Source: an uncultured archaeon (GTDB lineage Archaea > Nanobdellota > Nanobdellia > Woesearchaeales > UBA9642). Taken from it: a stretch of 64,000 bases of DNA. A model generated the notes under the pieces. That model did not search any database and was not told the DNA's origin. It saw nothing but the letters and a program-made list of their open reading frames with translations. The DNA lies in contig CAVZPN010000024.1 in NCBI GenBank assembly GCA_963777125.1, forward strand, positions 6,596-70,595, given 5' to 3'. The position numbers and the translations under genes were made by a program. The stretch's first letter is position 1; each line of letters opens with the position of its first letter. Positions 18,132 to 50,744 of this stretch are shown one piece after another.

Positions 18132-18159
18132 ATTAGCTCACTAGTAATTTATTTGTAAA

Positions 18160-25223: not shown

Positions 25224-25296
25224 TAACTAAATGCTTACTCCTTTATAGTGATGAACATAACATAACTTTTATAAATCACTAACCTATTCTATTTTT

Positions 25297-26238: not shown

Positions 26239-26239
26239 G

Positions 26240-27205: not shown

Positions 27206-27236
27206 TATTTATAAAATAAAGATCAGGTGATTTAAT

Positions 27237-27638: not shown

Positions 27639-27645
27639 AAATAAG

Positions 27646-28473: not shown

Positions 28474-28550
28474 TTTTCACCTCTTAAAACAGCAAATAAA
28501 TATATACTCACTAAATACATAGTAGATATTAAATACGCAGTAAATATTAT

Positions 28551-29144
28551 TTAATATTTCTTCTTTAATATTTCTTTGTATATTTCATTAACATCTTTAT
28601 ATAATTTAGAATCTTCAAGTCGCGTAAATACTTCATCATTGTTTATTAAAAAATCCGCTTGTACAAGACACATTCCTACTTGTTGACCATTTAAGGGTTC
28701 ATTAAATCCTCTATCTCTTGCATCTGCAATTACAAATTTATCAGTATTTAATAATTCTGCATCACGATTTCTTGCTTGAATTCTATGCCATCTTACTTCA
28801 AAAGGTGCATCAACACCAATTAAGGTAAAATTAGAATTCTCTCTTAAATATACTATTTCATCAACATTTCGTATGCCGACAATTATTAATGGAATATCAT
28901 AAGAATCATATTTTTTTAATGCTCTTACTGCAAGTACTGAACCGCCTTCATTTTTTCGCAATTCATTACCTAAGTCCTGTTGACTGCTACGAGTTATTTC
29001 AAGACCACGTAATGTTAATTCATCTCGACAGACTTCTCCAAGACTAATTAAGTGACATCCTTTTGTTTTAAGTATTGCTGCAACTACATCTTTTCCAGAA
29101 CATATTGTTCCACTAATTCCTATAACTAATTTTTTTTGTTTCAT
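28551..29144 (-). CDS. P-loop nucleotide/nucleoside kinase (dephospho-CoA kinase-like, UPF0200-like)
   Basis: Walker A ISGTICSGKD and a lid-like R-rich region. The ATG overlaps the histone stop codon (ATGA). Confidence 0.55.
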   Translation of the reverse strand: MKQKKLVIGISGTICSGKDVVAAILKTKGCHLISLGEVCRDELTLRGLEITRSSQQDLGNELRKNEGGSVLAVRALKKYDSYDIPLIIVGIRNVDEIVYLRENSNFTLIGVDAPFEVRWHRIQARNRDAELLNTDKFVIADARDRGFNEPLNGQQVGMCLVQADFLINNDEVFTRLEDSKLYKDVNEIYKEILKKKY

Positions 29145-29356
29145 TTTTTATTTTTGGCCGCAAATTTTACATCTTCAGCTTTAATTGTTTTTCGACCAGC
29201 ATGTATTGATAATTCTGCTGCAGCCTTTGCAAGTTCAAGACCTTTTTCTTCTAAATATAATCTCAATTCTTCCTTTGCAGGCTCGCTTACACGAATATCT
29301 GAAGATCCTTTTTTTAAAATCTTTTCCATAGCTGCTAACGGCAATATTTTACTCAT
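29141..29356 (-). CDS. archaeal histone (HMf family histone fold)
   Basis: MSKILPLAAMEKILKK...RVSEPAKEELRLYLEEKGLELAKAAAELSIHAGRKTIKAEDVKFAAKNKK aligns with HMfB (LPIAP..RI.K.AGAERVS...HAGRKTIKAEDI). The ORF-track start at 29377 is probably an upstream in-frame Met. SD gagggtga lies 4 nt before the ATG at 29356. Confidence 0.85.
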   Translation of the reverse strand: MSKILPLAAMEKILKKGSSDIRVSEPAKEELRLYLEEKGLELAKAAAELSIHAGRKTIKAEDVKFAAKNKK

Positions 29357-29385
29357 GAAATCACCCTCAAATTCCAAAACAAGTT

Positions 29386-29425
29386 ATAATAAGTACTATT
29401 ATAATATTATAAGCACTATTATATT
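29386..29425. repeat. tandem 20-nt direct repeat (ATAATAAGTACTATTATAAT / ATTATAAGCACTATTATATT) in histone promoter region
   Basis: Two adjacent units with 16 of 20 positions identical, 30-70 bp upstream of the histone ATG on the minus strand. Confidence 0.4.
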
Positions 29426-29502
29426 ATTAACAATCTAGAATCGCCTATTTAAAGATTACGGAATATAAAAAAATTTAAATAGAATACTAAGTTAATCTAA
29501 AT

Positions 29503-30180
29503 ATGTGGTTAGCTAAACTCAAACTTCAACATAAAGATTGTCCTATTGTTAATCGCTGTAATAAATTTAATCTTATTGTTTATTCTTATCCGAGTACGTG
29601 GTATCAAGAAAAGAACAAAAAGTATGCCACAACTACTTGCTTTTTTCAAAGTCAAGATAAAATCAAAAAAAATAAATTCTTATTAGATCTAAAGGCAGAC
29701 CGTCGAATTACAAATATAGAAATCTCAGGAGATATGTTCACATATGAAATAAGACTTCTTGGAAACGGTGAACATGTAATGTTATATCATACTAAGCAAA
29801 TATTTTTTATTAAACCAGTTATTAATCATCCAGATGGTCATGAATATTGGGAAGTAGCTTCATGGAAAAAAGAAATCTTAAGTAAATTTATAGAAGACCT
29901 GTCAGCACATATGAATATTTGTAAAATACTTAAATTAGTAGAACAACCTGTCACAGATATTTATCTTCCAAATGTTATGCCAAAACTTTCAGACCAACAA
30001 AAAAAAGCGTTAAAAATAGCTTATGAAAATTCATACTATACATATCCTAGAAAAAATTCTTTAACAACACTTGCTAAAAAGTCAGGATTAAGCGTATCAA
30101 CATTTCAAGAACATCTCCGTAAAGCAGAACTTAAGCTTTTACCAATTATCATTGAACAACAACTTAAAGAAGAAAATTAG
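29503..30180 (+). CDS. HTH_10 (Bat-like) DNA-binding domain protein
   Basis: C-terminal LSDQQKKALKIAYENSYYTYPRKNSLTTLAKKSGLSVSTFQEHLRKAELKLL matches the HTH_10 helix-turn-helix family. Confidence 0.55.
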   Translation: MWLAKLKLQHKDCPIVNRCNKFNLIVYSYPSTWYQEKNKKYATTTCFFQSQDKIKKNKFLLDLKADRRITNIEISGDMFTYEIRLLGNGEHVMLYHTKQIFFIKPVINHPDGHEYWEVASWKKEILSKFIEDLSAHMNICKILKLVEQPVTDIYLPNVMPKLSDQQKKALKIAYENSYYTYPRKNSLTTLAKKSGLSVSTFQEHLRKAELKLLPIIIEQQLKEEN

Positions 30181-30262
30181 TGCCTAATAATTCCATTCTA
30201 TAAAAATATGTGCCGTATATGTTCGGTAAAAGCATTATATCTATAGTTCCATTCCTAACTTA

Positions 30263-31411
30263 ATGACCCAAATAGAATTAGATAATTTAGTAGCCAATAT
30301 AATCTATAATACTGAAATTATAAACGAGGCAAGAAAAACACCTCCAGTACTCACCGAGGCAGAAGCAACAGAAATTGGTAAAATAATAGGAGCAAATAAT
30401 ATAAGTATAGATGTTAATTTAGCGCAAATATTTCTAAAAGAACAGTTTGAAGTATTTTTTGAAGCATATGCCAATAGAAATATAACTGCTGCATTACAAA
30501 GTTTGACCGATCTTAAATTTAGTAATCAATTAATTCCGACACTATATTCTAAACCCAATAAGTATTTTATTACACTCGAACAAAAACTACCTATGAAAGA
30601 TCCGGAATATGAAAATTATGAAGCACCATATTTTTTATCATTTAAAGAATTACGTAAAATAATAAGACATTCAAAAGACAGTATTCCTGTAGGAAATCAA
30701 ATAACGGTTAATGGAGTAAAACCAAATAAAGACTACTTTAAAACTGGAGAAGAAATGCTTATAAATATAAAACAGGCAGAAGAATCACTAATTAAATATC
30801 ATTTTACAATACATCAACTAAGTCATAAGAAAAAACACGCCAAAGAAATAAAGATAATAGGAAATGATTTTCGTAAATACGAGAGTTGGACAGGCGATGT
30901 TAAAATAATTGATTATAGTAATAATAAGTTAAAATATACATATTCTGATTTAAAGGGAAGAGAAAAAACAGAAACAGCTTCACGAATAAATATTAAAACA
31001 TACATCGAACCAGGAAGTAGTATGAATTTACTGGTGCCAAATATAGAATTAGATACTCTGGAGTCAATAATTTCTGCAATACAAAAGAATAATCCTGAAA
31101 AAGAAATAAACATAACAACAATAAAAAAATCCTATCAAACATATTTAGCGATTACTGATTGGGAAAAAGAGCTTGTATACAATCAGTACCTAAATTGTAC
31201 ACATAATAATGATATGTATATACTTAGATACCACAAAAAAGTTTTCGCTGCAATAGCCAAAAGAATGGATACAACATATATTAGAAAAATAGACTCACTT
31301 ATTACTAAACACTGGTATTTACAACCACTTATCGGAATAGTAGCATATATAAAAGAAGAATTTCCATATAAAATAAAATTTAAAATAGATTTCTCAGTTA
31401 AGAGAAAATAA
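30263..31411 (+). CDS. hypothetical protein (382 aa)
   Basis: Uninterrupted ORF with no recognisable motif. Confidence 0.45.
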   Translation: MTQIELDNLVANIIYNTEIINEARKTPPVLTEAEATEIGKIIGANNISIDVNLAQIFLKEQFEVFFEAYANRNITAALQSLTDLKFSNQLIPTLYSKPNKYFITLEQKLPMKDPEYENYEAPYFLSFKELRKIIRHSKDSIPVGNQITVNGVKPNKDYFKTGEEMLINIKQAEESLIKYHFTIHQLSHKKKHAKEIKIIGNDFRKYESWTGDVKIIDYSNNKLKYTYSDLKGREKTETASRINIKTYIEPGSSMNLLVPNIELDTLESIISAIQKNNPEKEINITTIKKSYQTYLAITDWEKELVYNQYLNCTHNNDMYILRYHKKVFAAIAKRMDTTYIRKIDSLITKHWYLQPLIGIVAYIKEEFPYKIKFKIDFSVKRK

Positions 31412-31421
31412 CCTATTACCA

Positions 31422-31928
31422 TTAATTCTTAAGATTTATTAAATTACAAGATAAATCAAAATTAATCTTTAATAGTGACCACATATAATCATAAGAATTG
31501 TCTGTAATAATTTTCACATTATTATCATGATCTGTTGTTCTAATGGAATTTTTAGTGACTGTTCCATATTCGTGTGATAATGCACTATATACTGTTCCTT
31601 CTACCAATTGTTTTGTTTTATTTAAAAATCTAAAATCTGTAACTATATTTCTTCCATAATCTACTAATAATATCTGACCATATATTTCATCAACAACCTT
31701 ATTAGAGTAATAATTCTCTTGTGTTTTATACTTAGTCAAATTAAGGTCAAAATTTTTATAATGTTCAGGTTTATTTTTCAGAAGATAATCATAATCTTTT
31801 ATATCATCTAACTTAAACAACCCTACATGTTTGTTTTGTTGAGCGTTTACGCTAAAAGTATCAGTCAATAATAGTGCACCAATTGATGCAACAGCACTTT
31901 TCTTCAAAAAATCTCGTCTAGTTGTCAT
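31422..31928 (-). CDS. secreted protein with twin-arginine (Tat) signal peptide, paralog A
   Basis: MTTRRDFLKKSAVASIGALLL is a canonical (S/T)RRxFLK motif plus h-region. First approximately 57 aa and the upstream 70 bp are near-identical to the adjacent paralog. Confidence 0.6.
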   Translation of the reverse strand: MTTRRDFLKKSAVASIGALLLTDTFSVNAQQNKHVGLFKLDDIKDYDYLLKNKPEHYKNFDLNLTKYKTQENYYSNKVVDEIYGQILLVDYGRNIVTDFRFLNKTKQLVEGTVYSALSHEYGTVTKNSIRTTDHDNNVKIITDNSYDYMWSLLKINFDLSCNLINLKN

Positions 31929-31988
31929 AGTAATTACCTATTAAATTTTAATCGAATATAGTTTAATTAAGTATAATTATGAATAATA

Positions 31989-32510
31989 TTATTTATCATG
32001 CTTATAAAAAGTATTATTAAAAATGAAGTCATAAGCAGTATGAAATTGTGATTTCGTTTTATTCCATTCTTCAATATAACAATTTACGCTAGTCTCCGTA
32101 TTAATATTATGATTAATAGTAGTTATATTATCTTTAGTTGTTTTTTCAGACATATGTGAATTAGCAGAATATCTTGTACCTTCTACTAACTGGTTTGAAT
32201 CTATTAAAAACCTAAAATCTTTAACACTATGGTTTTCATAATCTACAACTAATATCTGACCTAATTGTTCATTTGCAGATATATTAGAATAATAACTTCT
32301 GCCATTAACAGAACTAACAACATTAAGCTTTAGGCTATTATAATGTTCAGGTTTATTTTTCAGAAGATAATCGTAATCTTTTATATCATCTAACTTAAAC
32401 AACCCCACATGTTTGTTTTGTTGAGCGTACACACTAAAAGTATCAGGCAACAATAATGCACCTACTGATGCAATAGTGCTTTTCTTCAAAAAATCTCGTC
32501 TAGTTGTCAT
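31989..32510 (-). CDS. secreted protein with twin-arginine (Tat) signal peptide, paralog B
   Basis: MTTRRDFLKKSTIASVGALLL. Tandem duplicate of 31422..31928 with a diverged C-terminal two thirds. Confidence 0.6.
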   Translation of the reverse strand: MTTRRDFLKKSTIASVGALLLPDTFSVYAQQNKHVGLFKLDDIKDYDYLLKNKPEHYNSLKLNVVSSVNGRSYYSNISANEQLGQILVVDYENHSVKDFRFLIDSNQLVEGTRYSANSHMSEKTTKDNITTINHNINTETSVNCYIEEWNKTKSQFHTAYDFIFNNTFYKHDK

Positions 32511-32759
32511 AGTAATTATCTATTAAATTTTAATTGAATATATTTTAATTAAGTATAAATTATGAATAATAATATTATTTATATAGTTTTCGTTTTTGTA
32601 ATCACTCTTTAGTGATACTCTTGATTTAATAAATAATTAAATGGTATTAAACAAAGTCAAGTAATGACACTGAATACATAATCATAAAACATATAAACAT
32701 TAAAATTACTAAATACTATTAAATTAATAAGGAATTATAAGGCAGTAATAAATTAAAAG

Positions 32760-33632
32760 GTGATTTATATGGTACGTAAAGCAGTTTTCGCAGGACAATT
32801 CTATGAACATAATGAACAAGATTTAGATAAACAAATTACTGAATGTTTTGAAGGAAAAAATGGTCCAGGAGCTTTGCCATTAAATAAACGAGCAGGAATT
32901 ATTCAAGCAATAATTGCACCACATGCAGGTTATACTTATTCAGGAGCTTGCGCAGCTTGGGCATATAAAGAAATTGCTGAATCAGAATTTGCCGATGTAT
33001 ATATTATTCTTGGTCCTAATCATGCTGGAAATGGTAACGCATTAAGTATGCAAGGTTACGAAACACCATTTGGCCTAGCAAGAGTTGATCAAGAATTTGC
33101 AAATGCATTACTTGAAAAAAATTCTGAATTAAAAGTTGATGAAACAGCACATGAAGCAGAACACAGCATAGAAGTTCAAATTCCATTTTTACAATTTGCA
33201 ACTAAAGATAAGATGCATGAATTAAAAATAGTTCCAATAATATTAAGTAATATCGACTATAATAAATTAGGTCTTGATATTAAAGAAACAATAATTGAAA
33301 GTGGGAAAAAAGTTGTTATAATAGTAAGTAGCGATTTTACTCACTACGGAAGAAACTATCATTACATTCCTTTCAGTACTGATGTTAAGAAAAATATTTA
33401 TAATAGAGATAAGCAAGGAATAGAGTTAATAGAAAAACTTAATGCGGATGCATTTATGGGCTACATTGATGAAACAATGGGAACAATATGTGGAGCATTT
33501 CCAATAGCAACATTATTAAAAAGTATTAAAAGTGATAAAATAGAATTATTACAATACTACACTAGCGCAGATCTAGAAGAAGAACAATCATACAAGAATT
33601 CAGTAAGTTATGCGGCAATGGTGTTTAGATAA
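32760..33632 (+). CDS. MEMO1 / AmmeMemoRadiSam system protein B family (UPF0103)
   Basis: AVFAGQFY...APHAGYTYSGACAAWAY...ILGPNH motifs typical of the Memo-like family. Confidence 0.7.
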   Translation: MIYMVRKAVFAGQFYEHNEQDLDKQITECFEGKNGPGALPLNKRAGIIQAIIAPHAGYTYSGACAAWAYKEIAESEFADVYIILGPNHAGNGNALSMQGYETPFGLARVDQEFANALLEKNSELKVDETAHEAEHSIEVQIPFLQFATKDKMHELKIVPIILSNIDYNKLGLDIKETIIESGKKVVIIVSSDFTHYGRNYHYIPFSTDVKKNIYNRDKQGIELIEKLNADAFMGYIDETMGTICGAFPIATLLKSIKSDKIELLQYYTSADLEEEQSYKNSVSYAAMVFR

Positions 33633-33706
33633 AGTGCATTAGAGTTAAGTATCAGTAAGATATATAAAATCAACAAGTATTCTAATGATTAAGAGTATGA
33701 TTAATC

Positions 33707-35407
33707 ATGAGTAGAGATAAGAAGGAAGCAAATTCAGAAATAGCAGCAAATACTAATATTGATAAGACTACTGGTTTGACTAAAGAACAAGTTGAAAAAA
33801 CTAAAAAATATTCTGTCAGAGATGGTTCAGCTTACAACGTCATGTTTGGATTTGGAGAACAATACGTAACGCCTTATGCGTTAAAACTTGGCGCAACAAA
33901 TTCTGAAATTGGAATACTTGCAAGCGTTCCATCATTTATTGGTTCATTATTTCAAATTGTTGGAGCAAAATTAACTGATAAGTATAAAAATAGAAAAAAA
34001 GTTGTTACATGGTTTGTATTTTTTCAAGCATTAATGATTTTACCATTATTTATTATTCCATATTTTACTAAAAGCATCATGCTATTAACATTAATATTTT
34101 CATTATATCTAATATTTAGTAATGCTGGAGCTCCTGGATGGAATTCTTGGATTGGTTCAGTTATTCCTGAAAGCGAACGTGCAGAATATTTTAGTAAAAG
34201 AAATAGGGTTACAATATTTGCGTTGCTAGTTTCTGTTCTTTGTGCAGGATTAATATTAAATTATTTTACTAATGTAAACATTTGGATTGGCTTTGCAATA
34301 TTATTTGGAATTTCATTTCTTGGAAGAATAGTTTCTTGGTATTACTTAACAAAACAATATGAACCAGAATATGTTATTAATGATAATGCTCAATTTTCTT
34401 TTAAAGATTTTTTAAAAAGAATGCCTGAAACAAATTTCGGTAACTTTGTTATGTTTAGATCATTAATGGCTCTTGCCGTAATGATTGCTTCACCATTCTT
34501 TGCAGTATATATGTTAAATGAATTAAATTTTTCTTATATTCGATTTACAATAATAATTATTGTTCCTATGATTGTTAAAGTTTTAACTATGACTTATTGG
34601 GGTAAGTATAGTAATAAATTTGGTACAAGAAATATTATGATTGTGTCAGCATTCTTAATTGCATTATTTCCATTAATTTGGTTTTTAGGCGGCTACGTAT
34701 TATATAAATATTTTAATATATTCTATATTATTATATGCGCAGAAATTCTCGGAGGATTTGCCTGGGCAGGATTTGAACTAACAACATTTAATTATGTTTT
34801 AGAAACAGTTAGTCCCCAAAAAAGAGCTCAAGCAACAGCATACTTTAATGTAGTATTTGGAACATCAGTATTAATAGGAGGATTATTTGGAAGTTGGTTA
34901 ATTAGCGTTCTTCCAACAAACTTTTACGGCATGTCAACCTTATTAATGGTTATATTAATATCCGTAATTGCAAGATTTATCGTACCATTATTATTTATTT
35001 CTAAATTAAAAGAAGTTAAAATTAAAAAGAACATTGATGAAAGAAAATTATTTATGGATTTAGTTATAAGTAAACCATTACATTCAGCAATGCATCAAAC
35101 ATCTCAAATAATGTTTTTAACAGAAAAAAGTATAACTAAAGTTAGCAGCGTAACACGCAAAGGATTAACTATTGTTAAAAAACCAATTAATCCAGTAATA
35201 TCCGGAGTTGTTAATGGAATTGATAAAGGCTTAACAAAAGTTGAACCAATACGAAAAGCATTAGAGCCAAAAAAGATACGTCATAATAAAAAACAAAGAT
35301 ATGATGACTTAGTGAGTTATGATTATACTAATCATATTAAAAGTCATCCTAAAATGGCGAAGAAACTAGATAGAAAAAGCAGAATAATAGTTGTTAAGAA
35401 AAAATAG
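33707..35407 (+). CDS. MFS-type transporter with a long cytoplasmic C-terminal tail
   Basis: Approximately 12 predicted TM helices arranged as 6+6 with a loop between them. Basic C-terminal extension. Confidence 0.65.
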   Translation: MSRDKKEANSEIAANTNIDKTTGLTKEQVEKTKKYSVRDGSAYNVMFGFGEQYVTPYALKLGATNSEIGILASVPSFIGSLFQIVGAKLTDKYKNRKKVVTWFVFFQALMILPLFIIPYFTKSIMLLTLIFSLYLIFSNAGAPGWNSWIGSVIPESERAEYFSKRNRVTIFALLVSVLCAGLILNYFTNVNIWIGFAILFGISFLGRIVSWYYLTKQYEPEYVINDNAQFSFKDFLKRMPETNFGNFVMFRSLMALAVMIASPFFAVYMLNELNFSYIRFTIIIIVPMIVKVLTMTYWGKYSNKFGTRNIMIVSAFLIALFPLIWFLGGYVLYKYFNIFYIIICAEILGGFAWAGFELTTFNYVLETVSPQKRAQATAYFNVVFGTSVLIGGLFGSWLISVLPTNFYGMSTLLMVILISVIARFIVPLLFISKLKEVKIKKNIDERKLFMDLVISKPLHSAMHQTSQIMFLTEKSITKVSSVTRKGLTIVKKPINPVISGVVNGIDKGLTKVEPIRKALEPKKIRHNKKQRYDDLVSYDYTNHIKSHPKMAKKLDRKSRIIVVKKK

Positions 35408-35454
35408 AAAATACCCCATTAAAACTTATTCAATAATAAACATAAGGCAATAAA

Positions 35455-37248
35455 TCACTTCTTACCCTTTTTCTTAGGTTTTACTTTAGAAACAGAAGGT
35501 AATTTTTTCTTTGAATGTACAGCAGATTCTTTTGATGATTTCTTTTCTTCAACTACCACTTGTTTCTTTTCAACTTTAACATCGCTTATAATAGCCTTTG
35601 TATGCATTACATTAAATAATTCTGTAATGTTAATTTCAAGAACTGCAACAGGCATATCAATTGCCCAATTCATTAATACTTGAGGATGAATCTCGCCAAT
35701 GTAAGCAATTTTTGCATTGTTTACAACAACTCTTCCTGTTCTTCCTTTAATAAATGAGCCATGATCACTATCAGTAATATCATATTTAATATTTAATGCT
35801 TCACAAATTACATCTAATATTTGTTTAATCTTAGTAAAATTAGCATCATTACCACATAATGCAATTCCAAGTCTTTCAGTTTCATGAACACCAGTTTCAA
35901 AAGCAGAATCGAGTTTAAACACTGTTCCAATTTCGAAAATATTTTGAGGATAATCGTAGTGTTTATTGTACTTTAATGTTTCCATTAAACTTGGAGTCAT
36001 CCATGCACGTAAAATATTATAATCTTGCGTCACACTATTTTCTAGTTCAACACATTCAATTGGATAATTCATTAATTTTGATTGAACATCTTTATTTGTT
36101 AGATGATAATTTTTAACTTCAATAAAGCCGAGTCCAATTAATACAGATCTTAAACTATTATTAAATATTTCAACTGGTCTTTCACGTGCTGTTGTTGAAA
36201 ATTCTGATAATTTACCATTAAAATTTTCGTAACCATATGCAATTGCAACATCTTCAACTAAATCAATTGGATGTAATATGTCAGAACGATAATTTGGAAC
36301 TAATGCTTTTTTATTTTTATAATCGTGACCCATTTTTGCAAGATATTTTTTCACATCTGACTCAGATAAATTAAAACCTAAACGCTTATTTACATACTCA
36401 ACATCTAATTTTATTTCGCGTCCAGATAGATTAGGCGTTAAATATTTTTTATCAGGATACTGTAATTCTACACTAAAAATTTGGCCACCCATATCAGCCA
36501 TTGCAGTTACAACCATATTAAGACATGTATGTAAATAATCAAATTCGAATCCAGAACACTCAATAAATACATCTTTAGTTGTAAGAGTAATTTTACCAAT
36601 ATTATTACTATTAATTATTGGCGGCATACTCATAATATTTTGTTTAGAATCAATAAATATTGGATACTTTGATTTTCCTTCAAGTAAGTGCCCATATTCT
36701 CTTCCAGTTGGATGAATTGCAAGTATCTGCGAACCAGATAAATCCTTATTCATATCAAGTGGTTTAAATCTTATTTCTTCAGGAAATAATGCCTTATAAT
36801 AAATAGGTGGTTTAATATGTTCAAGTGGATAAATACCAATAGCAGTTTTTCTTCTATTTCGACCATAAGTAATATGTAATTTTTCTTGTATTTGAATTAA
36901 CTCTTTAATTTTTTCATCAGTTAATTTTAATCCTTTAACAATTGCGCAAGCAGTATACGGCCTTACATCTTTAACAGATTTATCAACAATTACTTTAACA
37001 CCACTTTTTTTAACATCATATTTTTTAAATCCTGATTTTATACCCATAAATGAACTTAGAGCTCTTGCCATTCCTTGTTCGGATAATAAATCAGGTCTAT
37101 TAGGAAATATTTCAACTTCAATTTCTTGCTCATTAATGCCTTCAAACCCGGTTCCAAGAAATGATATTCTATCACCTAATTGTTCATCAGATATTTTTCT
37201 TCCAAGTAATTCTAAAATTGTTTTCTTATTATATTTTAATGTAGGCAT
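35455..37248 (-). CDS. pheT: phenylalanine--tRNA ligase beta subunit, archaeal type
   Basis: Domain order typical of archaeal PheT (B3/4, B5, catalytic-like core). Adjacent to pheS. K-rich C-terminal tail. Confidence 0.8.
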   Translation of the reverse strand: MPTLKYNKKTILELLGRKISDEQLGDRISFLGTGFEGINEQEIEVEIFPNRPDLLSEQGMARALSSFMGIKSGFKKYDVKKSGVKVIVDKSVKDVRPYTACAIVKGLKLTDEKIKELIQIQEKLHITYGRNRRKTAIGIYPLEHIKPPIYYKALFPEEIRFKPLDMNKDLSGSQILAIHPTGREYGHLLEGKSKYPIFIDSKQNIMSMPPIINSNNIGKITLTTKDVFIECSGFEFDYLHTCLNMVVTAMADMGGQIFSVELQYPDKKYLTPNLSGREIKLDVEYVNKRLGFNLSESDVKKYLAKMGHDYKNKKALVPNYRSDILHPIDLVEDVAIAYGYENFNGKLSEFSTTARERPVEIFNNSLRSVLIGLGFIEVKNYHLTNKDVQSKLMNYPIECVELENSVTQDYNILRAWMTPSLMETLKYNKHYDYPQNIFEIGTVFKLDSAFETGVHETERLGIALCGNDANFTKIKQILDVICEALNIKYDITDSDHGSFIKGRTGRVVVNNAKIAYIGEIHPQVLMNWAIDMPVAVLEINITELFNVMHTKAIISDVKVEKKQVVVEEKKSSKESAVHSKKKLPSVSKVKPKKKGKK

Positions 37249-37283
37249 TTTTCACCATAGTTAATTAAAACTGAATTATTTAT

Positions 37284-37526
37284 TTACAAATCCTTTATTT
37301 TATGACTTATAACTTTTAATTTCGAATCCGAATCATATATACAAACTATTCCAACAATAAATAACATTACTGAAACAAGTAATAATTGTAAATGATAACT
37401 ATATATATTTATTATATATAATATTAAGCCTATAAGCGTTATTAACATAAATCCGAACATTAATAACAATCTTTTATTATATGCAAGTTCCAAACGTTTT
37501 AGTTCGAAAACTTTTTTATCATCCAT
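37284..37526 (-). CDS. small membrane protein (2 TM)
   Basis: 80 aa ORF with two hydrophobic helices between pheT and pheS. Confidence 0.35.
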   Translation of the reverse strand: MDDKKVFELKRLELAYNKRLLLMFGFMLITLIGLILYIINIYSYHLQLLLVSVMLFIVGIVCIYDSDSKLKVISHKIKDL

Positions 37527-37623
37527 TCTTAAACTCCCAGCACCTCTTTATTAAAAATACTAAATAAATATAATATCAATCAACATCCAAAAAAACTCAT
37601 TTCAATTGTCAATCAAACATCAA

Positions 37624-39169
37624 TTATTGTGGCTGTAATAACCATTTTTTAATTGATCTTAATTGTTTCATATCGTTTCTTGTGAAATCTCTTAAATCTT
37701 TAATATCGTAATATTGAGTTGTAATTCTTCCAAATCCAAATCCCCAAGCTAAAACAGGACACTCAAATCCCATTAAAGTTTTTGTAACTTCTGGTCTAAA
37801 CATTCCAGCGCCACCAAGTTCAACCCATTCATTTCTTTCTTTATTAAATACTTCAACTTCAATACTAGGTTCAGTATAAGGGAAATGTCCAGGTCTAATT
37901 TTTATCTTGTCATAACCCATTGCTTTGAAAAATACTTTAATATAACCAATTAAATCTTCAAATGTGGCATTAGGATCAACTACTATTCCATCTGTTTGAT
38001 AAAATTCAAATGAATGTTTCCAATCTACCGCTTCATTTCTAAATACTTTACCTATGTTGAAAAATTTAATTGGAAGATCTTCTTTTTTTAATTTAGATAT
38101 TGTCTGTGCAGATAATACAGTTGTATGAGTTCTTAGCATTAATTGTTTAGCTTTTTCTTCATCCCAAGTTCCACCCCAGCCGCAGCTTCCCGTATCTGCC
38201 CCATTTTCATGAACAGCTTTTATTCTCTTTTTTAATTCTTCAGGAATTTTTGCTTTTGAAGGCTTCTTTAAATAGAATGTATCTTGCATTTCTCTTGCCG
38301 GATGATCTTGTGGTACAAATAATGAATCTAAATCCCAGAACGCACTTTGAATCATTGTGCCAGACATTTCTTGAAATCCCTTATTTAACCATATTGATCG
38401 GGCATAATCCATAGCTTCATTTTCAAAATGTTTTTTTCCATAAACAATTTTTGGAACTTGAGATTTAATATCATACGATCTAAATTCTTTATTATTCCAA
38501 GATTTATTTCTAATTATTTCTTGTGTTAACACATCAATTACATCTTTATTTATAGAATCAAAATTTTGTAATAATTCACTTCCTAGAGCTGAAATAGTAA
38601 CTGTTTTTACTTTATCAACATCAACTTTTAAGATACTCTTACGTTTAACAAGTTCATTAAATGCATAGACTTCTTCAGATGACAATGCCTTTGGATCAAG
38701 TGGGAATGATTTTTTTAAGAAAATTTCTTCAAGTGTTTCTTTTTTTAATATATTTCGACCAAGAATCAGTCATAGAAACTAATACATCATTTCCTTTCTT
38801 TGCAATATTTATTGCTCCTTTCTTTTTTAATAATCCTAAAGAAACAGATACTTCTTCTTTTGATAATTTTGATGCTTTTTCAATATCTTTAATTGACATT
38901 TCATGATTTAAAGCGGTTAAAAATAATCTTTCTGGTAATCCTTGTTTAACATACAATTTACCATTTGTATCTAGAAATATTAATTGTTTAGAATCTTCTT
39001 TTAAATCTATTAGATTCTTATTTTTAAGCCATTGTAAGGCTCTACTTACTTCTACGTCTTTTAATTTAGAATTCTTCTCTAAATCACTAATTGTACTAAA
39101 TTTAGGAATAAGTGGCAATAATTTTCTCTCTAAAGGATGCAAACTATCCACTAGCTTTTTCAAATCCAA
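37624..39169 (-). CDS. pheS: phenylalanine--tRNA ligase alpha subunit, archaeal type, reading frame interrupted by a +1 frameshift at an A7 run
   Basis: 38729..39169 encodes the winged-helix N-terminal domain. 37624..38685 encodes the class II core (motif 2 FRNEAVDWKHSFEFYQTDG, motif 3 GAGMFRPEV). Manual translation shows the catalytic frame stays open upstream through the N-ORF stop. Removing one A from the A7 tract (plus-strand T7 at 38740..38746) fuses the two parts into one approximately 510 aa protein. Confidence 0.7.
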
Positions 39170-39630
39170 TGTTATAACCCCCTAAAATTCTATCTTTAGA
39201 TATAACAAATATATAAACCTATCTATTGTATTTATAAATAAACTGAGTAGAATCGACACTAAATATAACTATTGTAGGAGGACAAAAATAAGCAAATAGT
39301 ATACTATATACACACAAAATAAGTCATAACTAGAACAAGTAAATTATTTCACTAACAATAAAACACAAAATATTAAATCATAAAAATACACTATTAATAA
39401 AATATTAAAAATAATAATTATATTTAATAAATATCAATTAAAATTAAAAGCACATCTAAATACTCACTCTACATAATTCACCCCTCTCATCCAATAACAA
39501 TAATATAACCATTCTGTAAGGGTTAAAAACCAAAACATATATAAAGTAGTATACTTATTTCATTTCTATAGAATAGCAATTTTTAAGAAAAAGGGTGAAA
39601 AATTGACTAAGTATTAGTCGAGAGGTTAAA

Positions 39631-40449
39631 ATGATTGTTAAAGAAGAATTTTTAAGCAAGTTAAGAAGATATTTTGGTTTAAATCTTTACGAAGTAAAAA
39701 TTTGGACTGCACTGTTAAGTAGAGGAGTTTCTACAGCAGGAGAATTATCCGACATTGCAAATGTTCCAAGAAGTAGAAGTTACGATATTTTAGAATCTCT
39801 TGAGAAAAAAGGATTCGTTGTAATGAAAATTGGAAAACCTATAAAGTACATAGCTGTTTCTCCAAAAGAAATTGTTGAAAGAGTAAAGAAGAATGTAAGA
39901 ATAGACTCTGATGAAAAAATAAAACGACTTGAAGACTTAAAAGGAACTGACGTTGTAGATGAATTAAATAATTTACACACACAAGGTGTTGAAATTATAG
40001 AACCATCTGATTTAAGCGGAAGTTTAAAAGGAAGACACAACTTATACAATCATCTAGAATTAACTATTAAAAATGCAGAAGAAAGCGTTACTATAATGAC
40101 TACAAATGAAGGTTTAATGAGAAAAATAGAAGGATTAAAACCAGTATTTGAACAATTAAAGAAACGTGGCGTTAAAATAAAAATTGCTGCACCATTAAAT
40201 AAAGATTCAATCCCTGCAGTTAAAGATTTAGGCAACGTTGCTGAAATAAGACACACAGATGCAAAAGCAAGATTTACAATTGTAGATAGAAAAGAATTAT
40301 TATTTATGATTGCAGATGATAAAGAAGTTCATCCAACTTACGATGTAGGAATTTGGGTAAATACTCCTTTCTTTGCTAATGCTCTTGAAGAATTATTCGA
40401 ACTAGCATGGAAAGAAATGAAACCTGCAAAGAATGTACTTAAATTATAA
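39631..40449 (+). CDS. TrmB-family transcriptional regulator
   Basis: N-terminal LYEVKIWTALLSRGVSTAGELSDIANVPRSRSYDILESLEKKGFV TrmB winged helix, followed by a C-terminal effector-like domain. Confidence 0.7.
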   Translation: MIVKEEFLSKLRRYFGLNLYEVKIWTALLSRGVSTAGELSDIANVPRSRSYDILESLEKKGFVVMKIGKPIKYIAVSPKEIVERVKKNVRIDSDEKIKRLEDLKGTDVVDELNNLHTQGVEIIEPSDLSGSLKGRHNLYNHLELTIKNAEESVTIMTTNEGLMRKIEGLKPVFEQLKKRGVKIKIAAPLNKDSIPAVKDLGNVAEIRHTDAKARFTIVDRKELLFMIADDKEVHPTYDVGIWVNTPFFANALEELFELAWKEMKPAKNVLKL

Positions 40450-40538
40450 GTACTTATTTTTTTATTTATTTTTACTTCTTAAAATATAATTAATAATTGA
40501 AAAAAATATTTTCTCTTCCAAAATTCACACAATATTAA

Positions 40539-41300
40539 TTAAAATTCAAACTCTTGTCCAGGTAACACGAAACCTGCAAAGCCATCTGCTTTAGGATTTT
40601 TTGTCTCCCAATTTCCACTAAGATGTACTAAATAAGTTTTAGCTCTGTGTTCATCAGACATTTCTCTAAGTAATTTATCATAAGATATATGTACATCTCC
40701 TGGACCAGAATAAAAACATTGACAATCTTGAAATAATATTTTTTTATTTTCAGGAGGTAATTCAATAGTATCGCCAGAATAATAAATCCCATTTGCAAAA
40801 TCTATTGCATAAGACTCCATTCCTTGAACATGCATTGTCGGTACAAATTTAATTTCAGGAATACCTGGAATATTAATTTTAGAACTTACAACCGAATTAA
40901 AATAAGTGTCGAGTGACGCATCTAATGCTAAACCATTAAAATTTTGTATTTTTTGCATCGAACCTTTTAAACAGTTATTCCAAAGCATTTGTTTAAATCC
41001 TTCTGAACCAAGATATAAGTTAGGATTTTGTTCTTCCCTTTTTTTTAATCCAAAATAATTCATAAAACCCAATCCTTCAAGTCCGCCAACATGATCGCTA
41101 TGAGAATGAGTTATTAAAATATCAGTTATACTAGCTAATTCTCCTCGTTTAAGTAATTCAGACGTTACAGTATAACCACAATCTACAAGAAGATTTCTAT
41201 TTTGATCTCCTTTAACAAGAAAACTAGTATTTCCTAGTTTAAAATTGAGTCCCGACCCTGTACCTAACCAAATTAGTTTCATAATACTATCACTACTCAA
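40539..41300 (-). CDS. MBL-fold metallo-hydrolase
   Basis: ITHSHSDHVGG (HxHxDH) zinc-binding motif and a downstream conserved His. Confidence 0.7.
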   Translation of the reverse strand: MSSDSIMKLIWLGTGSGLNFKLGNTSFLVKGDQNRNLLVDCGYTVTSELLKRGELASITDILITHSHSDHVGGLEGLGFMNYFGLKKREEQNPNLYLGSEGFKQMLWNNCLKGSMQKIQNFNGLALDASLDTYFNSVVSSKINIPGIPEIKFVPTMHVQGMESYAIDFANGIYYSGDTIELPPENKKILFQDCQCFYSGPGDVHISYDKLLREMSDEHRAKTYLVHLSGNWETKNPKADGFAGFVLPGQEFEF

Positions 41301-41391
41301 GAGTAATGGCAGTATATATAAAAAATGTTAAGATTCATTTTTCATCTTTTAACGTAATATTTATATAATATTGCGACTTTAGATATAATTA

Positions 41392-42393
41392 ATGAAATAT
41401 ATATCTAATTCAAACGTAAAAAACAATATAAATCTAGATTTAAAAGATAAAAAAATATTAGGATATTTATCAGAAGATGCCAAAATATCAAGAAATATTC
41501 TTGCAAAAAAAGTAGGTCTTTCTAAAGATTCAGTCAAATATAGAATAGAACGATTAATAAGTAAAGGCATAATTCAAGGGTATAGAACAATAATAGATAT
41601 GAGTAAAATAGGATTTGAAAATTATCATATTTTTCTAAAATTAAATCCCTTGACTACAAGTATAGAATCCGAAATAGTAAAAAAACTTCAAAAATGCGAA
41701 TTTATAAGAGCAATAATAAAATATAATGGACGCTATGATTACGAATTAGCAATACTAGTACAAGGACCATTAGAATTTGAAAAAATATTTGAAAAAATAT
41801 TTAATGAATGTGATAATCAAATAAAAGACTATGAAATAGTACAATTGACAGAATATTATATAGTTAATACATTTCCAAAGAATTTTATAGAGCTAGATGA
41901 ACAAACATTTAGTAAAACCAGTAGTCTAATAAAAATAGATGAAAAAGATAGACAAATATTAAGCATAATATCAAACGATGCAATTTTACCTAATTACAAA
42001 ATAGGGCAACAGATAAACTTATCAGGTGATGCAGTAAGTTATAGAATTAAAAAAATGACTAAAGAAGGAGTAATTCAAAAAGCAATACCAATAATAAATT
42101 ATTCTGCTCTGGATTATGGAATATTTGCAATCCTTATAAGATTTAACAATGCGATAGATAATAGAAATTTAAAAATTAAAGACTTTTTCAAAACAAACAA
42201 AAATATTCTCTGGACTGTTAGATGTTTTGGTAAATATAATATTATTGCATATATTTGTGTAAACAACGTGAAACAATACCATGAAACCATGAATGAACTT
42301 AAAAATAACTTTTCTGAAATAATTATGAACATAGAAACATTAATATCTTATGAAGAACATAAATATAGTTACGTACCAAAAGTGATGCTTTAA
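41392..42393 (+). CDS. tandem double Lrp/AsnC-family regulator (two HTH+RAM modules)
   Basis: First module LDLKDKKILGYLSEDAKISRNILAKKVGLSKDSVKYRIERL. Second module IDEKDRQILSIISNDAILPNYKIGQQINLSGDAVSYRIKKM. Each is followed by a RAM-like region. Confidence 0.6.
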   Translation: MKYISNSNVKNNINLDLKDKKILGYLSEDAKISRNILAKKVGLSKDSVKYRIERLISKGIIQGYRTIIDMSKIGFENYHIFLKLNPLTTSIESEIVKKLQKCEFIRAIIKYNGRYDYELAILVQGPLEFEKIFEKIFNECDNQIKDYEIVQLTEYYIVNTFPKNFIELDEQTFSKTSSLIKIDEKDRQILSIISNDAILPNYKIGQQINLSGDAVSYRIKKMTKEGVIQKAIPIINYSALDYGIFAILIRFNNAIDNRNLKIKDFFKTNKNILWTVRCFGKYNIIAYICVNNVKQYHETMNELKNNFSEIIMNIETLISYEEHKYSYVPKVML

Positions 42394-42444
42394 AATTAAA
42401 TAAATACTAAAACATCAAATCCAAAGAAACTAAAATATGTTTTT

Positions 42445-43446
42445 TTAAGTAGATTCTTTCTTAATAACATACAACAATTCGCTTCCTAAAGTGTATTTTT
42501 CATAAGACCAGGCTAATTTATCTAGGAGTTTTTCAAACCATTGTCTTCTATGTTCCTTAATCTCTCTTACTCCGCCAATAGATAAAGTAGGAAATGTTAC
42601 GGCAAAATATTTTGTTGAAATACTCTTTAATAAACTTTCAGTAATATTCCATTTAATTCTTTCAAGACCATCAAGTGTCTTAAAAATAAAACATATATCA
42701 ACATTAATCTTAGTTAATTTCGGAAATATCTTTTCATCAGTTAAATCTGCAGGAAATATTATTGCATCAATAGTTGTTGTGTCAAAATAATCTTTTAAAA
42801 ATTTACAATCTTCACTAGATATATCTGAAGCATAATATTTTTCTATTTTTTCAGCAAATAACACACTACTAACTGGATTCATACCACAGGCTAAATCCAT
42901 AAAAATATATTTTGCAGAGTTATCTAACTTACCTGATTTATTAAACAACTTAGAATCTTTTTCAAAATCTTCGATTTTACCAAATATGGTAGTATATAAT
43001 TGATCATAATGATCCATTCTTTCTTTTGTTGATTTATGTAATGAAAATAATTGATTATGTAAATCCATATATTCAAAATTATCTTTAGACTTATCATCTT
43101 TTGAAATTGCTTCTAATTCTTCAAGAATTTTCAAACGTTTATTATATCCTTCAAGAATAAATACACCATATACTCTACGTAACTCAGCACGTAACTCTTT
43201 TATTAAAAATTTATATTCTCGACTTTTAGTAAATTGTTTATATGTTTTGGCATTATTTAATTTTATGAGAAACTTTTCTTTTGCTTGCTCATGATTTCTA
43301 TTCTTAAAAAAAACATCTAATTTATTTTTTATAAAATCTTCATCAAGTGTTCTTAATTCTTTTTTATCCTTAATATCTTGTATTAATTCATCTTCGTGTA
43401 ATAATTTAATTTCATGTTTTGTTTCATTAATTATATCTTCGCTCAT
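42445..43446 (-). CDS. putative class I SAM-dependent methyltransferase with N-terminal coiled-coil region
   Basis: Motif I-like FMDLACGMNP and a YASDIS acidic-loop motif. The rest is unassigned. Confidence 0.35.
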   Translation of the reverse strand: MSEDIINETKHEIKLLHEDELIQDIKDKKELRTLDEDFIKNKLDVFFKNRNHEQAKEKFLIKLNNAKTYKQFTKSREYKFLIKELRAELRRVYGVFILEGYNKRLKILEELEAISKDDKSKDNFEYMDLHNQLFSLHKSTKERMDHYDQLYTTIFGKIEDFEKDSKLFNKSGKLDNSAKYIFMDLACGMNPVSSVLFAEKIEKYYASDISSEDCKFLKDYFDTTTIDAIIFPADLTDEKIFPKLTKINVDICFIFKTLDGLERIKWNITESLLKSISTKYFAVTFPTLSIGGVREIKEHRRQWFEKLLDKLAWSYEKYTLGSELLYVIKKEST

Positions 43447-43496
43447 TTTAGTGTCCTATAATATTAGTTTAAAGTTCATTAATTATGAATATAATT

Positions 43497-44544
43497 TCAA
43501 TTAGTATAATCCTTCCATCTAAATATTGCTGCAATTCCGGTTAGACCATCTAATTTTTTCATTGCATCATCGCTACTTATTAATTTAACTTCAGCATTCA
43601 TAGCTTCAACAAGAGTCATAATATTCTCTACTACATCATACTTATGCTCCTTTTTCATTTTTTTTATATAATTATCAGAAATTAATAATTTTGCAACATT
43701 TCCAGCATTTACTTTTTCAAGAACTTCATCAGTTCCGTATACTGCTTCATCCTTAGTAATTTTTCCAAGTAATTCCTCAACTAATTTTACTTCACGTGTT
43801 GCTCTATCTTTATCGAGTACTGTTTTTAATTCAGAATCTTTTTAATATCTCATTAATTGCGCCATCATCAACACTTGAACAAGTTGCCAGCACAATTTTT
43901 TTAAGTATAGTATCATCTTTAACTTCTTTGATTAAATATTCTTTCCAAAATGCAGGACTTGCAAGAATTATATTATCAAATAAATATTTATGATTATAAG
44001 CCAATATATGAGAATAGATTTCTTGATAAAAGTTTGTTTTCTTCTCCTCCATATCCTTCTTTGAAACATCTCCTTTTAAATCAAGTAAAACTTCATATCC
44101 TTGATTTTTGAGTACTGCAAATATTGCTTCCTCACAATCAAACGCAACTATTAAAATATTTACTATTTGAGCATTAATTGCTTCATCAAGCTTTTTTAAA
44201 GCATATTTTGACCAAACAGCCTTAGTAAGAGTCACAACTACGCCTGACGTTAAATCGAAAGTATGATAATCCCCTTTCGGAATATCGTCTGGTGCTTCAA
44301 TTATTTTACCAGATAATCTTAATGAATCTTCATGTTCTAACTTTTCAACTTGTATTTTTAAGAAAACTATACGTTTAATAATTTTAGATTTATCTTCAGA
44401 ACCGCCTAATTTTAATTTTCTTTCAGTTGTACCACTAATAAAATCTCCTTCTTCAATAATACCTGCAAGATGCCATAAATCCGTAGTATCATCTACTTTA
44501 AGCTTTATTTCTCCATGTTTTAAGTCCTTATCTAATATTTTCAT
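43497..44544 (-). CDS. pelA: Pelota (Dom34) mRNA surveillance factor, reading frame interrupted by a +1 frameshift at an A5 run
   Basis: 43831..44544 encodes the Pelota N-terminal and central domains (MKILDKDLKHGEIKLKVDDTTDLWHLAGII...). Manual minus-strand translation of 43497..43830 in the adjacent frame gives the eRF1-like domain 3 (ATREVKLVEELLGKITKDEAVYGTDEVLEKVNAGNVAKLLISDNY...AIFRWKDYTN*). Deleting one T from the T5 run at 43839..43843 joins them into one approximately 345 aa protein. Confidence 0.7.
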
Positions 44545-44719
44545 TATACTAAGTAAATTTATTGCATTTCACCATAATTACAGCATTTAATTATACTTAA
44601 CTAAATAAAAGTCAATACAATTATGAATTAATAGCACAATATTTGTAAAATTATCTTAGAATTTAAAGTTATTCTTTATTTGCTTAATTTAATTAAATAA
44701 AATACCTTAATATGAACAA

Positions 44720-45679
44720 TTACTTCTCACTTGCACGTAAATCTTCAATTTTATTTGCAAGTATAATTCTTTCAAAAACAATAAAATAAGTGAACTGAAC
44801 AACAAGTGCTACTATTAAAGGTATTGCAGTATGTGCTGTAAAAAGCAACAAAACTATTGCAAGACCCGTCATTTCATTTTTTTGAGTAGAATATAATGAA
44901 TAATCAATTGCATCCATTTCTGATACAAACTGACGACTAACATAATATACTATTAAACCTAAAGTAAATATTACGGTAATATTTATCAAAAAGATATGTC
45001 TTATATTAATATCGCTGATATTTAGCAGTATTGATCTATTTAAGGATACAACAATAAAAATAATTAACCCTAATAATAAATTAGTAATTATTTTAGTATA
45101 ATTAAATAGGTAATTGATTACTTTAGTCTCAATATTTCTTGTTAAATAGGCTAAAATTATTGGAATTAAAATCAATATTAAAAGTGAACGTGCGAGTAAC
45201 ATAAATTTTATATTAGTACCAAAAAGAGCATATAATGTTGTTGGAATAATTATCAATGCAAGAAAATAACTTAAAATTAAAGCACTATCAGCAACTTTTA
45301 TATCACACTTTGCTAAATAACATAATGGAACTATAGCAATAGCAGGAGGAATTATTGCAAGTAAAACATAACCTAAAAAGTAATCTGAAGATAGTGGGAA
45401 AAATATTGAAGCAATAAGCAAATAAAATCCCGACAATAAAACATAATTTAATAGAATTGAAATAATAATACTTTTTCTGTCTGAAGAAATATTATTAAAA
45501 TTAGACTTTTTTTTAAAAAAAGGTCTTATTGATAAAAACATCACAACTCCAAGACTAATTTCAGTAATAGATTTAATAGAATTAACATTTATGATAAAAA
45601 TTAAAGGTAAAATTATAGCCATAATAAAAATAAGTTCAGTACTTTCAAACAAAGATTTAATGGAAAAATTAAAGACCAT
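44720..45679 (-). CDS. polytopic membrane protein (approximately 10 TM), possible transporter
   Basis: Highly hydrophobic 319 aa ORF. Divergently transcribed from the Cys-rich pilin-like gene. Confidence 0.45.
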   Translation of the reverse strand: MVFNFSIKSLFESTELIFIMAIILPLIFIINVNSIKSITEISLGVVMFLSIRPFFKKKSNFNNISSDRKSIIISILLNYVLLSGFYLLIASIFFPLSSDYFLGYVLLAIIPPAIAIVPLCYLAKCDIKVADSALILSYFLALIIIPTTLYALFGTNIKFMLLARSLLILILIPIILAYLTRNIETKVINYLFNYTKIITNLLLGLIIFIVVSLNRSILLNISDINIRHIFLINITVIFTLGLIVYYVSRQFVSEMDAIDYSLYSTQKNEMTGLAIVLLLFTAHTAIPLIVALVVQFTYFIVFERIILANKIEDLRASEK

Positions 45680-45892
45680 TAAATAATTAAGACATAACTA
45701 GTATATATTTGTTAGGTATTATAAAATATAGCTACTAAAACAAAAAATCGTAAGCAATAATAAATCAATTTTATTAACTAAAACAATAGTAATATTTATA
45801 AAGATGAATATCAAGTTTGATAATATTATCTCGAGTATTACAAAGAGTATTACAAGAGCAGAATTATCTACATAAAAAAAGGCATATTCAAG

Positions 45893-47578
45893 GTGAACAG
45901 CATGACTCAAAGAAGAGGACAAAGTGCAGGTAATGCAGCAGCATTTGTAGCAATATTAACCGTATTAATAATTGTATACATATTATTCTTACCTCCAGAT
46001 ATAAGAACTGAATTATTAGGAGATAAAAATGGAATATTAAATGATTCTAGTACTAGCACAAATACTGAAATACTATTAAAACAAAATATTGGCAAAGTCA
46101 CCTACATCAATACTGCTGAAAAAACATACGATTTACCAACTGTTCGAATATATTCTCCAACAAGCGGTCAAGTTCTAAAAAGTATTCCGAGTTCTAATAT
46201 AAGATACGCACTTTTTGATACTGAAAAATCTAAATATACTCTTGAATTAAATATTGATAAAAGATCCACAGAAAATCTTGTTTTAGTATTTAATGTCATG
46301 GAACATACAGGACCATTAATTATTGCTCTTAATGGTAATGAAATATTTAATGGCGAAGTAAAAACAACTAATCCTAAACCAATAAAACTTGATTCTGGAT
46401 CATTACTTGAAAACAATATTATAACATTTAGTGTCCCATCCCCTGGTTTAAAATTTTGGACTGCTAATAAATACACTTTAGAAAATATACAAATTACTGG
46501 CGATGTAACTGACTATAGTAATTCTATGGCCATACAAAATTTCGTTATAAGTCAAGTCGAGAAAGAAAATCTTGAAAGTATAAAATTATTTTTTTATCCT
46601 GATTGTGATTTATCTGAAGCTGGAAGCTTAAGAATTGATTTAAACGGAAGAGCAATATATAATAGTGTAGCAGATTGTGGAACAAGAACATTTGCAACAT
46701 TAAATACCAACGATATAATTTCAGGCAGTAATGAATTAAGATTTTATAGTGCTAAAGGATCATACATGTTAGATAATATGTATATCAAAACTACAATGAC
46801 AAAACCAGCATATAAAACATACTTCTTTGACTTAAAAGATGAATATTTTACATTTAAAACAAAAACTAGTATGTGTGGAGAATATGATGGCACATGTCCT
46901 ATTGGTTGTGATGAAACAACTGATGCTGATTGCTGCTTTGATAGAAAAGGATATTGGTGCGCTCTACCATTATCAAACGTTAATGATAGATGTAGATTCT
47001 ATGTAGCAAGCGATGATTGTTCATTATGTAAAACAGGATATTATGATGACAGCGGAGATGCTCCGACTACTTGTGAAAAAAAATGCGGAGATAACAACGA
47101 TAAAATCTGTGATAGTACTTGCTCGCAACCAAATAAATATTACGATAAAGATTGCTGCTTTGCACAAAGCAAGGATAATTTCTGGTGTAAAGAAACACCA
47201 ATAACAGGAATTGCAGACAAATGTAAACCAGCAATAAATCCTAGTGAATGTGACTTATGTCCATCAGGATACATCAATAAAGATGGCTCAGAACCTAAAT
47301 CATGTACTACTACAAACTTTAATATTCAAGATGAAGATTACTTATTTTCAAGCAATTATGAATTGAAAATCGTAGTTAAATTTGTTGATAGTACAACACG
47401 TAAACGTGTAGACTTTAATATCAATGGTCATACATTTAGAATTGATACAACAAATGTTGAATATACTAAATTAATCGCAGACTACGCTACAACTGGAACT
47501 AACAGCATTGAAATAAAACCAGTAGATAAAGATGTGGATATTTCAGAAGTTAGAGTAGAATTAAGAAGAGTTAAGTAA
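45893..47578 (+). CDS. pilin-like surface protein with class III (type IV prepilin-like) signal peptide and large Cys-rich ectodomain
   Basis: Likely true start is the ATG at 45902 (MTQRRGQ|SAGNAAAFVAILTVLIIVYILFL). This gives a short basic leader, a G at the cleavage position and a hydrophobic stretch. Internal duplicated Cys motifs (CSLCKTGYYDDSGDAPTTC / CDLCPSGYINKDGSEPKSC and DADCCFDRKGYWC / DKDCCFAQSKDNFWC). SD aggtga upstream. Confidence 0.55.
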   Translation: MNSMTQRRGQSAGNAAAFVAILTVLIIVYILFLPPDIRTELLGDKNGILNDSSTSTNTEILLKQNIGKVTYINTAEKTYDLPTVRIYSPTSGQVLKSIPSSNIRYALFDTEKSKYTLELNIDKRSTENLVLVFNVMEHTGPLIIALNGNEIFNGEVKTTNPKPIKLDSGSLLENNIITFSVPSPGLKFWTANKYTLENIQITGDVTDYSNSMAIQNFVISQVEKENLESIKLFFYPDCDLSEAGSLRIDLNGRAIYNSVADCGTRTFATLNTNDIISGSNELRFYSAKGSYMLDNMYIKTTMTKPAYKTYFFDLKDEYFTFKTKTSMCGEYDGTCPIGCDETTDADCCFDRKGYWCALPLSNVNDRCRFYVASDDCSLCKTGYYDDSGDAPTTCEKKCGDNNDKICDSTCSQPNKYYDKDCCFAQSKDNFWCKETPITGIADKCKPAINPSECDLCPSGYINKDGSEPKSCTTTNFNIQDEDYLFSSNYELKIVVKFVDSTTRKRVDFNINGHTFRIDTTNVEYTKLIADYATTGTNSIEIKPVDKDVDISEVRVELRRVK

Positions 47579-47625
47579 AATTCTCTAGTAATGAGGTGTA
47601 AGCCTAAGGTGAGGCTAAAGTAAAT

Positions 47626-49182: not shown

Positions 49183-49195
49183 AATAATTTAACCA

Positions 49196-50671: not shown

Positions 50672-50744
50672 ATTAAAAAAGCAGAATATATTATACTTAA
50701 AAAAAACATAATCTTTATATATTATACACACAGGAGTTAATAAA

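Follow-up and report, generated by a model that had tools for sequence, protein, structure and literature searches.

The window, i.e., the whole stretch of 64,000 nucleotides analysed here, carries on its minus strand two overlapping open reading frames (ORFs) that together are one archaeal PheS alpha subunit. The gene pheS (37624..39169, minus strand) encodes an archaeal-type phenylalanine--tRNA ligase alpha subunit of 514 aa once a single extra base is left out. Its assignment, already made in the original prediction, agrees with matches to NF003210 and PF01409 and with the homologs. Sequence reading also confirms that the gene is interrupted by a one-base frame change and lies in two overlapping frames. 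The first ORF (38729..39169, minus strand) starts with TTG, covers the winged-helix domains in 146 aa and ends, as described earlier, at a TGA (38731-38729). The second, a +1-frame open stretch that holds the remainder of PheS (37624..38769, minus strand), has a TGA at 38772-38770 as its nearest upstream stop and then stays open until the stop at 37624, with no stop between that TGA and the TTG at 38685; its upstream translation reads ...GRNILKKETLEEIFLKKSFPLDPKALSSEEV. The N-terminal ORF and the C-terminal frame overlap by 37 nt (38732..38768). Inside this overlap lies a sense-strand run of seven A (A7), which is present where it had been reported (plus-strand T7, 38740..38746) and is read in frame as TTA AAA AAA GAA (LKKE). 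Since the window has a GC content of 27.9% and contains 79 A7/T7 runs, this run is not unusual.

Genes at and around the pheS locus

NF003210 (PRK04172) is the NCBIfam equivalog for the archaeal/eukaryal-type PheRS alpha subunit and has a cut-off of 350 bits. Scanned separately, the two halves match it at positions 3-126 (N-terminal part) and 155-492 (C-terminal part). The class II catalytic core (PF01409) is found at residues 232-505 with E = 7e-76 and covers profile positions 2-245 of 246. With this complete core and with many alignment columns that are invariant across the window's PheS and all 23 aligned relatives, the remainder of pheS looks fully functional. A tblastn search with the corrected protein found no second pheS copy within the 64-kb window. 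Exact-protein look-ups of the 146-aa N-terminal part (with M or L as first residue) and of the 353-aa C-terminal part returned no record, with Logan included for the N-terminal part.

Downstream of pheS, in the same gene cluster, lies pheT (35455..37248, minus strand), which encodes the PheRS beta subunit of 597 aa; B5 and tRNA_synthFbeta domains are found on the identical gene of the Logan assembly discussed below. Both genes are separated by an 80-aa hydrophobic ORF (37284..37526, minus strand) that has no Pfam match. The order TrmB - pheS - 80-aa ORF - pheT is conserved in relatives, and the 80-aa gene is found at the same position in L001 (4564-4806), L002 (4724-4966) and L003, the relatives in question being about 85% identical. 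This conserved placement suggests a small membrane protein that may be co-transcribed with the PheRS genes.

Further observations concern the rest of the window. The gene at 40539..41300 (minus strand; positions 2480-3223 of the Logan contig L053) encodes a metallo-beta-lactamase fold with precomputed matches to PF23023 (Anti-Pycsar Apyc1) and Lactamase_B; its product may just be an RNase Z-like or MBL enzyme. At 22884..25223 (plus strand), a 779-aa product combines DEAD/ResIII helicase, ERCC4 nuclease and HhH domains, i.e., a Hef-like helicase-nuclease architecture. Several large ORFs (1185, 342, 313 and 321 aa) in 59251..63827 (minus strand) and 25297..27205 (plus strand) show no Pfam match at E <= 0.001, and ARAGORN reports no tRNA gene in the whole 64 kb (1..64000).

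Position of the frame change

To place the frame change, the window was aligned with 23 relatives on the protein level as well as with the relatives' DNA, the close relatives being 80-86% identical. Relatives read ...GNDVLVSLTD-V-GRNILKKEMLEE..., while the window's N-terminal frame reads ...GNDVLVSMTD followed by SWSKYIKKRNT and the stop, and its C-terminal frame reads GRNILKKETLEE.... That is, the N-terminal frame is authentic up to Asp135 and the C-terminal frame is already authentic at Gly137 (GRNILKK onward, from the GGT at 38760). The 146-aa ORF thus holds residues 1-135 of authentic PheS; the 11 residues after them, SWSKYIKKRNT, come from reading on out of frame as far as the TGA.

On the DNA level, alignment and relatives' sequences map the frame change between GAT (Asp, 38767-38765) and GGT (Gly, 38760-38758). 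Here, the window has the four nucleotides TCTT (38764..38761) where relatives have one codon (GTT, GTC, GTA or ATT). The closest relative, L023 (86% aa identity), reads GAT GTT GGA CGA AAT ATA TTG AAA AAA GAT, and the matching segment of the window reads GAT TCTT GGT CGA AAT ATA TTA AAA AAA GAA. This is also reflected in the tblastn alignment of the corrected protein, in which the frame switches precisely at the step from residue 135 to residue 136. The extra base at 38764/38765 (minus strand; sense TT, plus-strand AA) is located 18 nt upstream of the A7 run, 4-5 nt outside the interval 38686..38760 that had been given for the shift, and the UGA that ends the N-terminal ORF follows 33 nt downstream of this homology-defined frame change.

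The original prediction had put the shift at the A7 tract. The relatives, the tblastn alignment and the gap in the Logan assembly (see below) all place it at 38764/38765 instead. Deleting one A was said to yield a continuous PheS of canonical length, which is correct as far as length (514 aa) and a full NF003210 match are concerned; the resulting sequence SWSKYIKKETLEE is wrong. For the seven disputed residues, the A6 repair (...SWSKYIKKETLEE...) agrees with relatives at a mean of 1.1/7 positions, compared to 5.1/7 for the upstream repair (...LGRNILKKETLEE...). The A6 repair furthermore substitutes Trp for a Gly shared by at least 90% of the relatives. Choosing between both repairs by the NF003210 score turned out to be useless: the A6 repair scores 499.6 bits and the T-deleted repair 498.5 bits, each in one stretch over positions 3-492 of 496. 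This broad archaeal model is uninformative in the linker, and it is the close relatives and the Logan contig that decide the repair.

The A7 run is normal in-frame coding sequence, since it is kept in the intact Logan contig as well as in the intact relatives L002 and L003, which have the same in-frame run (ATA AAA AAA GAA). At the matching run, L023 has A6 with a synonymous TTG. In general, a frame change can be placed anywhere within the overlap of two ORFs, and the nearest homopolymer is a tempting guess that is not necessarily right; the true site is found by alignment with close relatives.

The pheS reading frame in relatives and in an independent assembly

The interruption is seen in no relative. 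The best 120 database homologs have about 503-548 aa and are all full length, the best of them being 514-aa Woesearchaeota PheS proteins that are up to 85-86% identical. We scanned the corrected protein against species-representative genomes (19 loci) and JGI metagenomes (29 loci). All 19 genome loci match without a break, and the same holds for the eight closest metagenome loci (80-86% identity), six of which match over residues 1-514. Thus, neither the best 120 homologs nor the 19 genome loci nor the metagenome loci that cover the site contain a split pheS. The exact DNA pattern TCTATGACTGAT N{3,4} GGTCGAAATATATTAAAAAAAGAAAC across the site gave 0 matches in genome contigs and 0 in metagenome contigs. 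Among the proteins compared, one archaeal-type PheS that is 76% identical to that of the window (P0020) carries the NCBI label 'Alphaproteobacteria bacterium'; its contig is probably mis-binned or mislabelled.

Exact-protein look-ups with the TrmB-family regulator, the 80-aa ORF, pheT and two other neighbours led to four Logan contigs, all from run ERR12037365, which is the only run with these exact proteins. In total, 38,137 nt of the window are represented in these contigs, namely 17096..31785, 32489..37684, 38059..43832 and 43836..56313. For three contigs (32,364 nt), identity to the window is 100%. The fourth, L053 (ERR12037365_7108398; 5,773 nt), aligns to window 38059..43832 without a mismatch and with a single 1-nt gap. 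This gap falls at 38764/38765: the sequence there is GAT CTT GGT in Logan and GAT TCTT GGT in the window; on the sense strand, the allele with the extra base is GATTCTTGG and the intact one GATCTTGG. Within L053, the site is at position 706 of 5,773, far from either contig end. A single uninterrupted pheS ORF, which is absent in the window, is present in L053 for residues 1-370: it has the same TTG start, keeps the A7 run, runs 370 aa to the contig end and reads ...TDLGRNILKKETLEE... / ...VLVSMTDLGRNILKKETLEE... across the site. Its CTT codon (Leu) differs by one substitution from the GTT (Val) of L023. The exact 370-aa product is absent from the cluster table, and a literature search gave no paper on ERR12037365.

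With L053 ending at residue 370, the stretch 37685..38058 is seen in the window alone, where it is open and in frame; for the 3' part of pheS, L054 and the window have the same sequence with an open frame. Logan contigs break at 31785|32489, 37684|38059 and 43832|43836, the second break leaving 374 nt of the pheS catalytic region uncovered; these 374 nt have no repeat elsewhere in the window, and the break may stem from coverage or from strain branching.

The lesion base is the sole difference between window and Logan in the 38,137 nt compared; the window assembly is otherwise accurate, and both assemblies are from the same strain. Logan is the one independent assembly available and probably derives from the same run. 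Logan retains only 31-mers that were seen at least twice in a run (PMC12424806), such that the intact allele is supported by reads. By our calculation, the chance that a random Logan error would fall into the 4-nt slot predicted by homology is about 4 in 5,773.

Sources of the extra base

These results bear on three ways in which the interrupted gene could be real. The first is recoding, for which two mechanisms had been suggested: full-length PheS might be restored by +1 ribosomal frameshifting in the overlap (the original prediction pointed to UGA-A) or by transcriptional slippage from A7 to A6. The 37-nt frame overlap (38732..38768) does contain the A7 run, and slippage rescue is known from the AT-rich endosymbionts Buchnera and Blochmannia (cited in PMC5009743). 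The window's genome resembles theirs in being AT-rich and reduced and in having an A run inside the frame overlap. Against this stands the finding that the break is missing from every relative and from the independent assembly of the same organism, which provides an intact allele in the same strain; a shared break in relatives had been named as support for recoding, and the ortholog comparison found it in none of them. Moreover, a shift at A7 produces SWSKYI instead of the conserved GRNIL segment, i.e., restoring the frame there does not recover the conserved peptide (1.1/7 vs 5.1/7), in contrast to poly(A) slippage rescue. The run is also short: bacterial transcriptional slippage occurs on runs of 9 A or T according to PMC5009743, a review that covers frameshifting in general, whereas the pheS run has 7 A and belongs to the normal frame of both the intact allele and relatives. 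Programmed slippage, in which a long homopolymer restores a conserved protein, is therefore not what is found here.

For ribosomal frameshifting, the site itself offers little. At GAU UCU UGG (38767..38759) there is neither a stop codon nor a slippery motif; by inspection, we infer that P-site re-pairing after a +1 slip would fail for both UCU to CUU and GAU to AUU, and no SD-like stimulator is seen upstream. The likely archaeal chromosomal case listed in PMC5009743 is Mg chelatase (Methanococcus, Methanocaldococcus), with a conserved -1 shift at A_AAA_AAR. As in pheS, an archaeal chromosomal gene has an A-rich heptamer in an ORF overlap. Its shift, however, is -1 and under purifying selection across genera, whereas pheS needs +1 (or -2) and shows its break in one assembly only. 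On archaeal chromosomes the known shifts are -1, a direction that would leave the pheS frame unrestored; for the same reason, we rejected a -1 slippery heptamer at the A7 run.

A +1 case for comparison is prfB (RF2) of bacteria, in which an SD-like stimulator directly precedes the CUU UGA where the ribosome shifts, an arrangement conserved across bacteria. pheS is similar in being an essential translation-related gene that is spread over two overlapping frames, the second of which is +1 while the first ORF ends at an in-frame UGA. It differs in that its site, GAU UCU UGG, lies 33 nt before the UGA, has no slippery codon or stimulator and is conserved in no relative; that is, both the conservation among orthologs and a shift-prone codon beside a stop or slow codon are absent. 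Taken as the way in which this organism makes PheS, we regard recoding as scarcely credible.

The second way is a functional split gene of the sort found in some DPANN genomes. Two separate polypeptides, one with the N-terminal winged-helix module and one with the catalytic module, would then assemble with PheT. Nanoarchaeum equitans is a precedent, with known split genes that include a split alanyl-tRNA synthetase, and each half of the window's pheS matches its own part of the PheS model (3-126 and 155-492). A separate C-terminal protein would nevertheless lack a start near the break. Its canonical in-frame starts are the TTG at 38685 (the first), a GTG at 38532 and an ATG at 38412, none of which is preceded by an SD-type motif, and starting at the TTG would drop about 25 conserved residues. 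The overlap of the two halves, which are out of frame with each other, looks like the result of a recent indel, without separation or own signals, and the split is found neither in any relative nor in the Logan contig of the same strain. A Nanoarchaeum-type split would call for a start and signal of its own in each part and for conservation of the split; neither is seen here. Such a split thus appears exceedingly improbable. Among the called genes of L053-L056 (window 17096..56313) in general, 15/31 have a GGTGA/GGAGG-type Shine-Dalgarno motif upstream and the others none, a pattern that fits SD-led and leaderless transcripts occurring side by side.

The third way is a real polymorphism, i.e., part of the natural population would carry a frameshifted, probably non-functional pheS allele that was taken by the deposited assembly, with the intact allele coexisting. 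De Bruijn assemblers normally output read-supported sequence, and so some reads may contain the inserted allele as a genuine polymorphism. The two assemblies, each expected to be read-supported, are otherwise identical over 38 kb and hence probably stem from the same sample. In addition, the Logan contigs break about 700 nt away inside pheS (38059|37684), which could reflect strain-level branching of the graph. On the other hand, null alleles are expected to be rare for a gene that is essential and present in a single copy (no second pheS was found in the window), the 146-aa N-terminal product of such an allele is on record from no source, Logan included, and there is no other variant in 38 kb. 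Overall, we consider a polymorphism of this kind unlikely. Still less likely is a combination in which the frameshifted allele is real and common and cells survive on little full-length PheS made via A7 slippage or low-level +1 shifting; if true, a DPANN archaeon would be compensating for an indel in one of its essential aminoacyl-tRNA synthetases.

What fits best is the other alternative of the original prediction, a sequencing or assembly error, given that both the independent assembly and the relatives are without the extra base. The organism, a Woesearchaeota-type DPANN archaeon, would then have an ordinary uninterrupted pheS. One extra base in the window's consensus, in the codon after Asp135 (sense GAT-T-CTT, 38764/38765), would set the frame off by one and thereby create the two overlapping ORFs; the A7 run 18 nt downstream would play no role beyond normal coding sequence, and PheS production would require neither frameshifting nor slippage. 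Very probably, the extra base is an error or artefact of the deposited assembly or at most a variant that is not fixed. Between these two, we infer an artefact and not a real minor allele.

A generally error-prone or noisy assembly is not the source. When five abutting same-strand ORF pairs were scanned with Pfam as a check for frameshifts, these five pairs gave no sign of further split genes, and the domains found were complete (two full Band_7 paralogs, His_Phos_1, Inositol_P). The Band_7 pair at 1695..2825 and 2827..3864 (plus strand), abutting ORFs with a complete SPFH/Band_7 domain each, was rejected as a split gene, two complete domains marking tandem paralogs. Since there are no further splits and every other base of the 38 kb agrees with Logan, the pheS lesion stands alone and does not reflect a consensus that is noisy overall.

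The case resembles single-base consensus errors in metagenome-assembled genomes (MAGs), which lead to frameshifted pseudogene calls: one extra base sits in a conserved essential gene, both pheS halves are co-linear with intact orthologs, and the break is found neither in relatives nor in a second assembly of the same strain. It differs in two respects. The insertion, T to TT, is not in a long homopolymer and is not the commonest type of sequencing error, and the lack of any other difference in 38 kb points to an isolated slip instead of a noisy long-read consensus.

A fixed frameshift allele would make pheS a rare compensated frameshift in an essential archaeal gene; the evidence points the other way. 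For annotation, pheS of the window should thus be treated as an intact gene from which the extra base at 38764/38765 is left out. It should be counted neither as a pseudogene nor as missing in assessments of completeness or metabolism, nor as a candidate for recoding.
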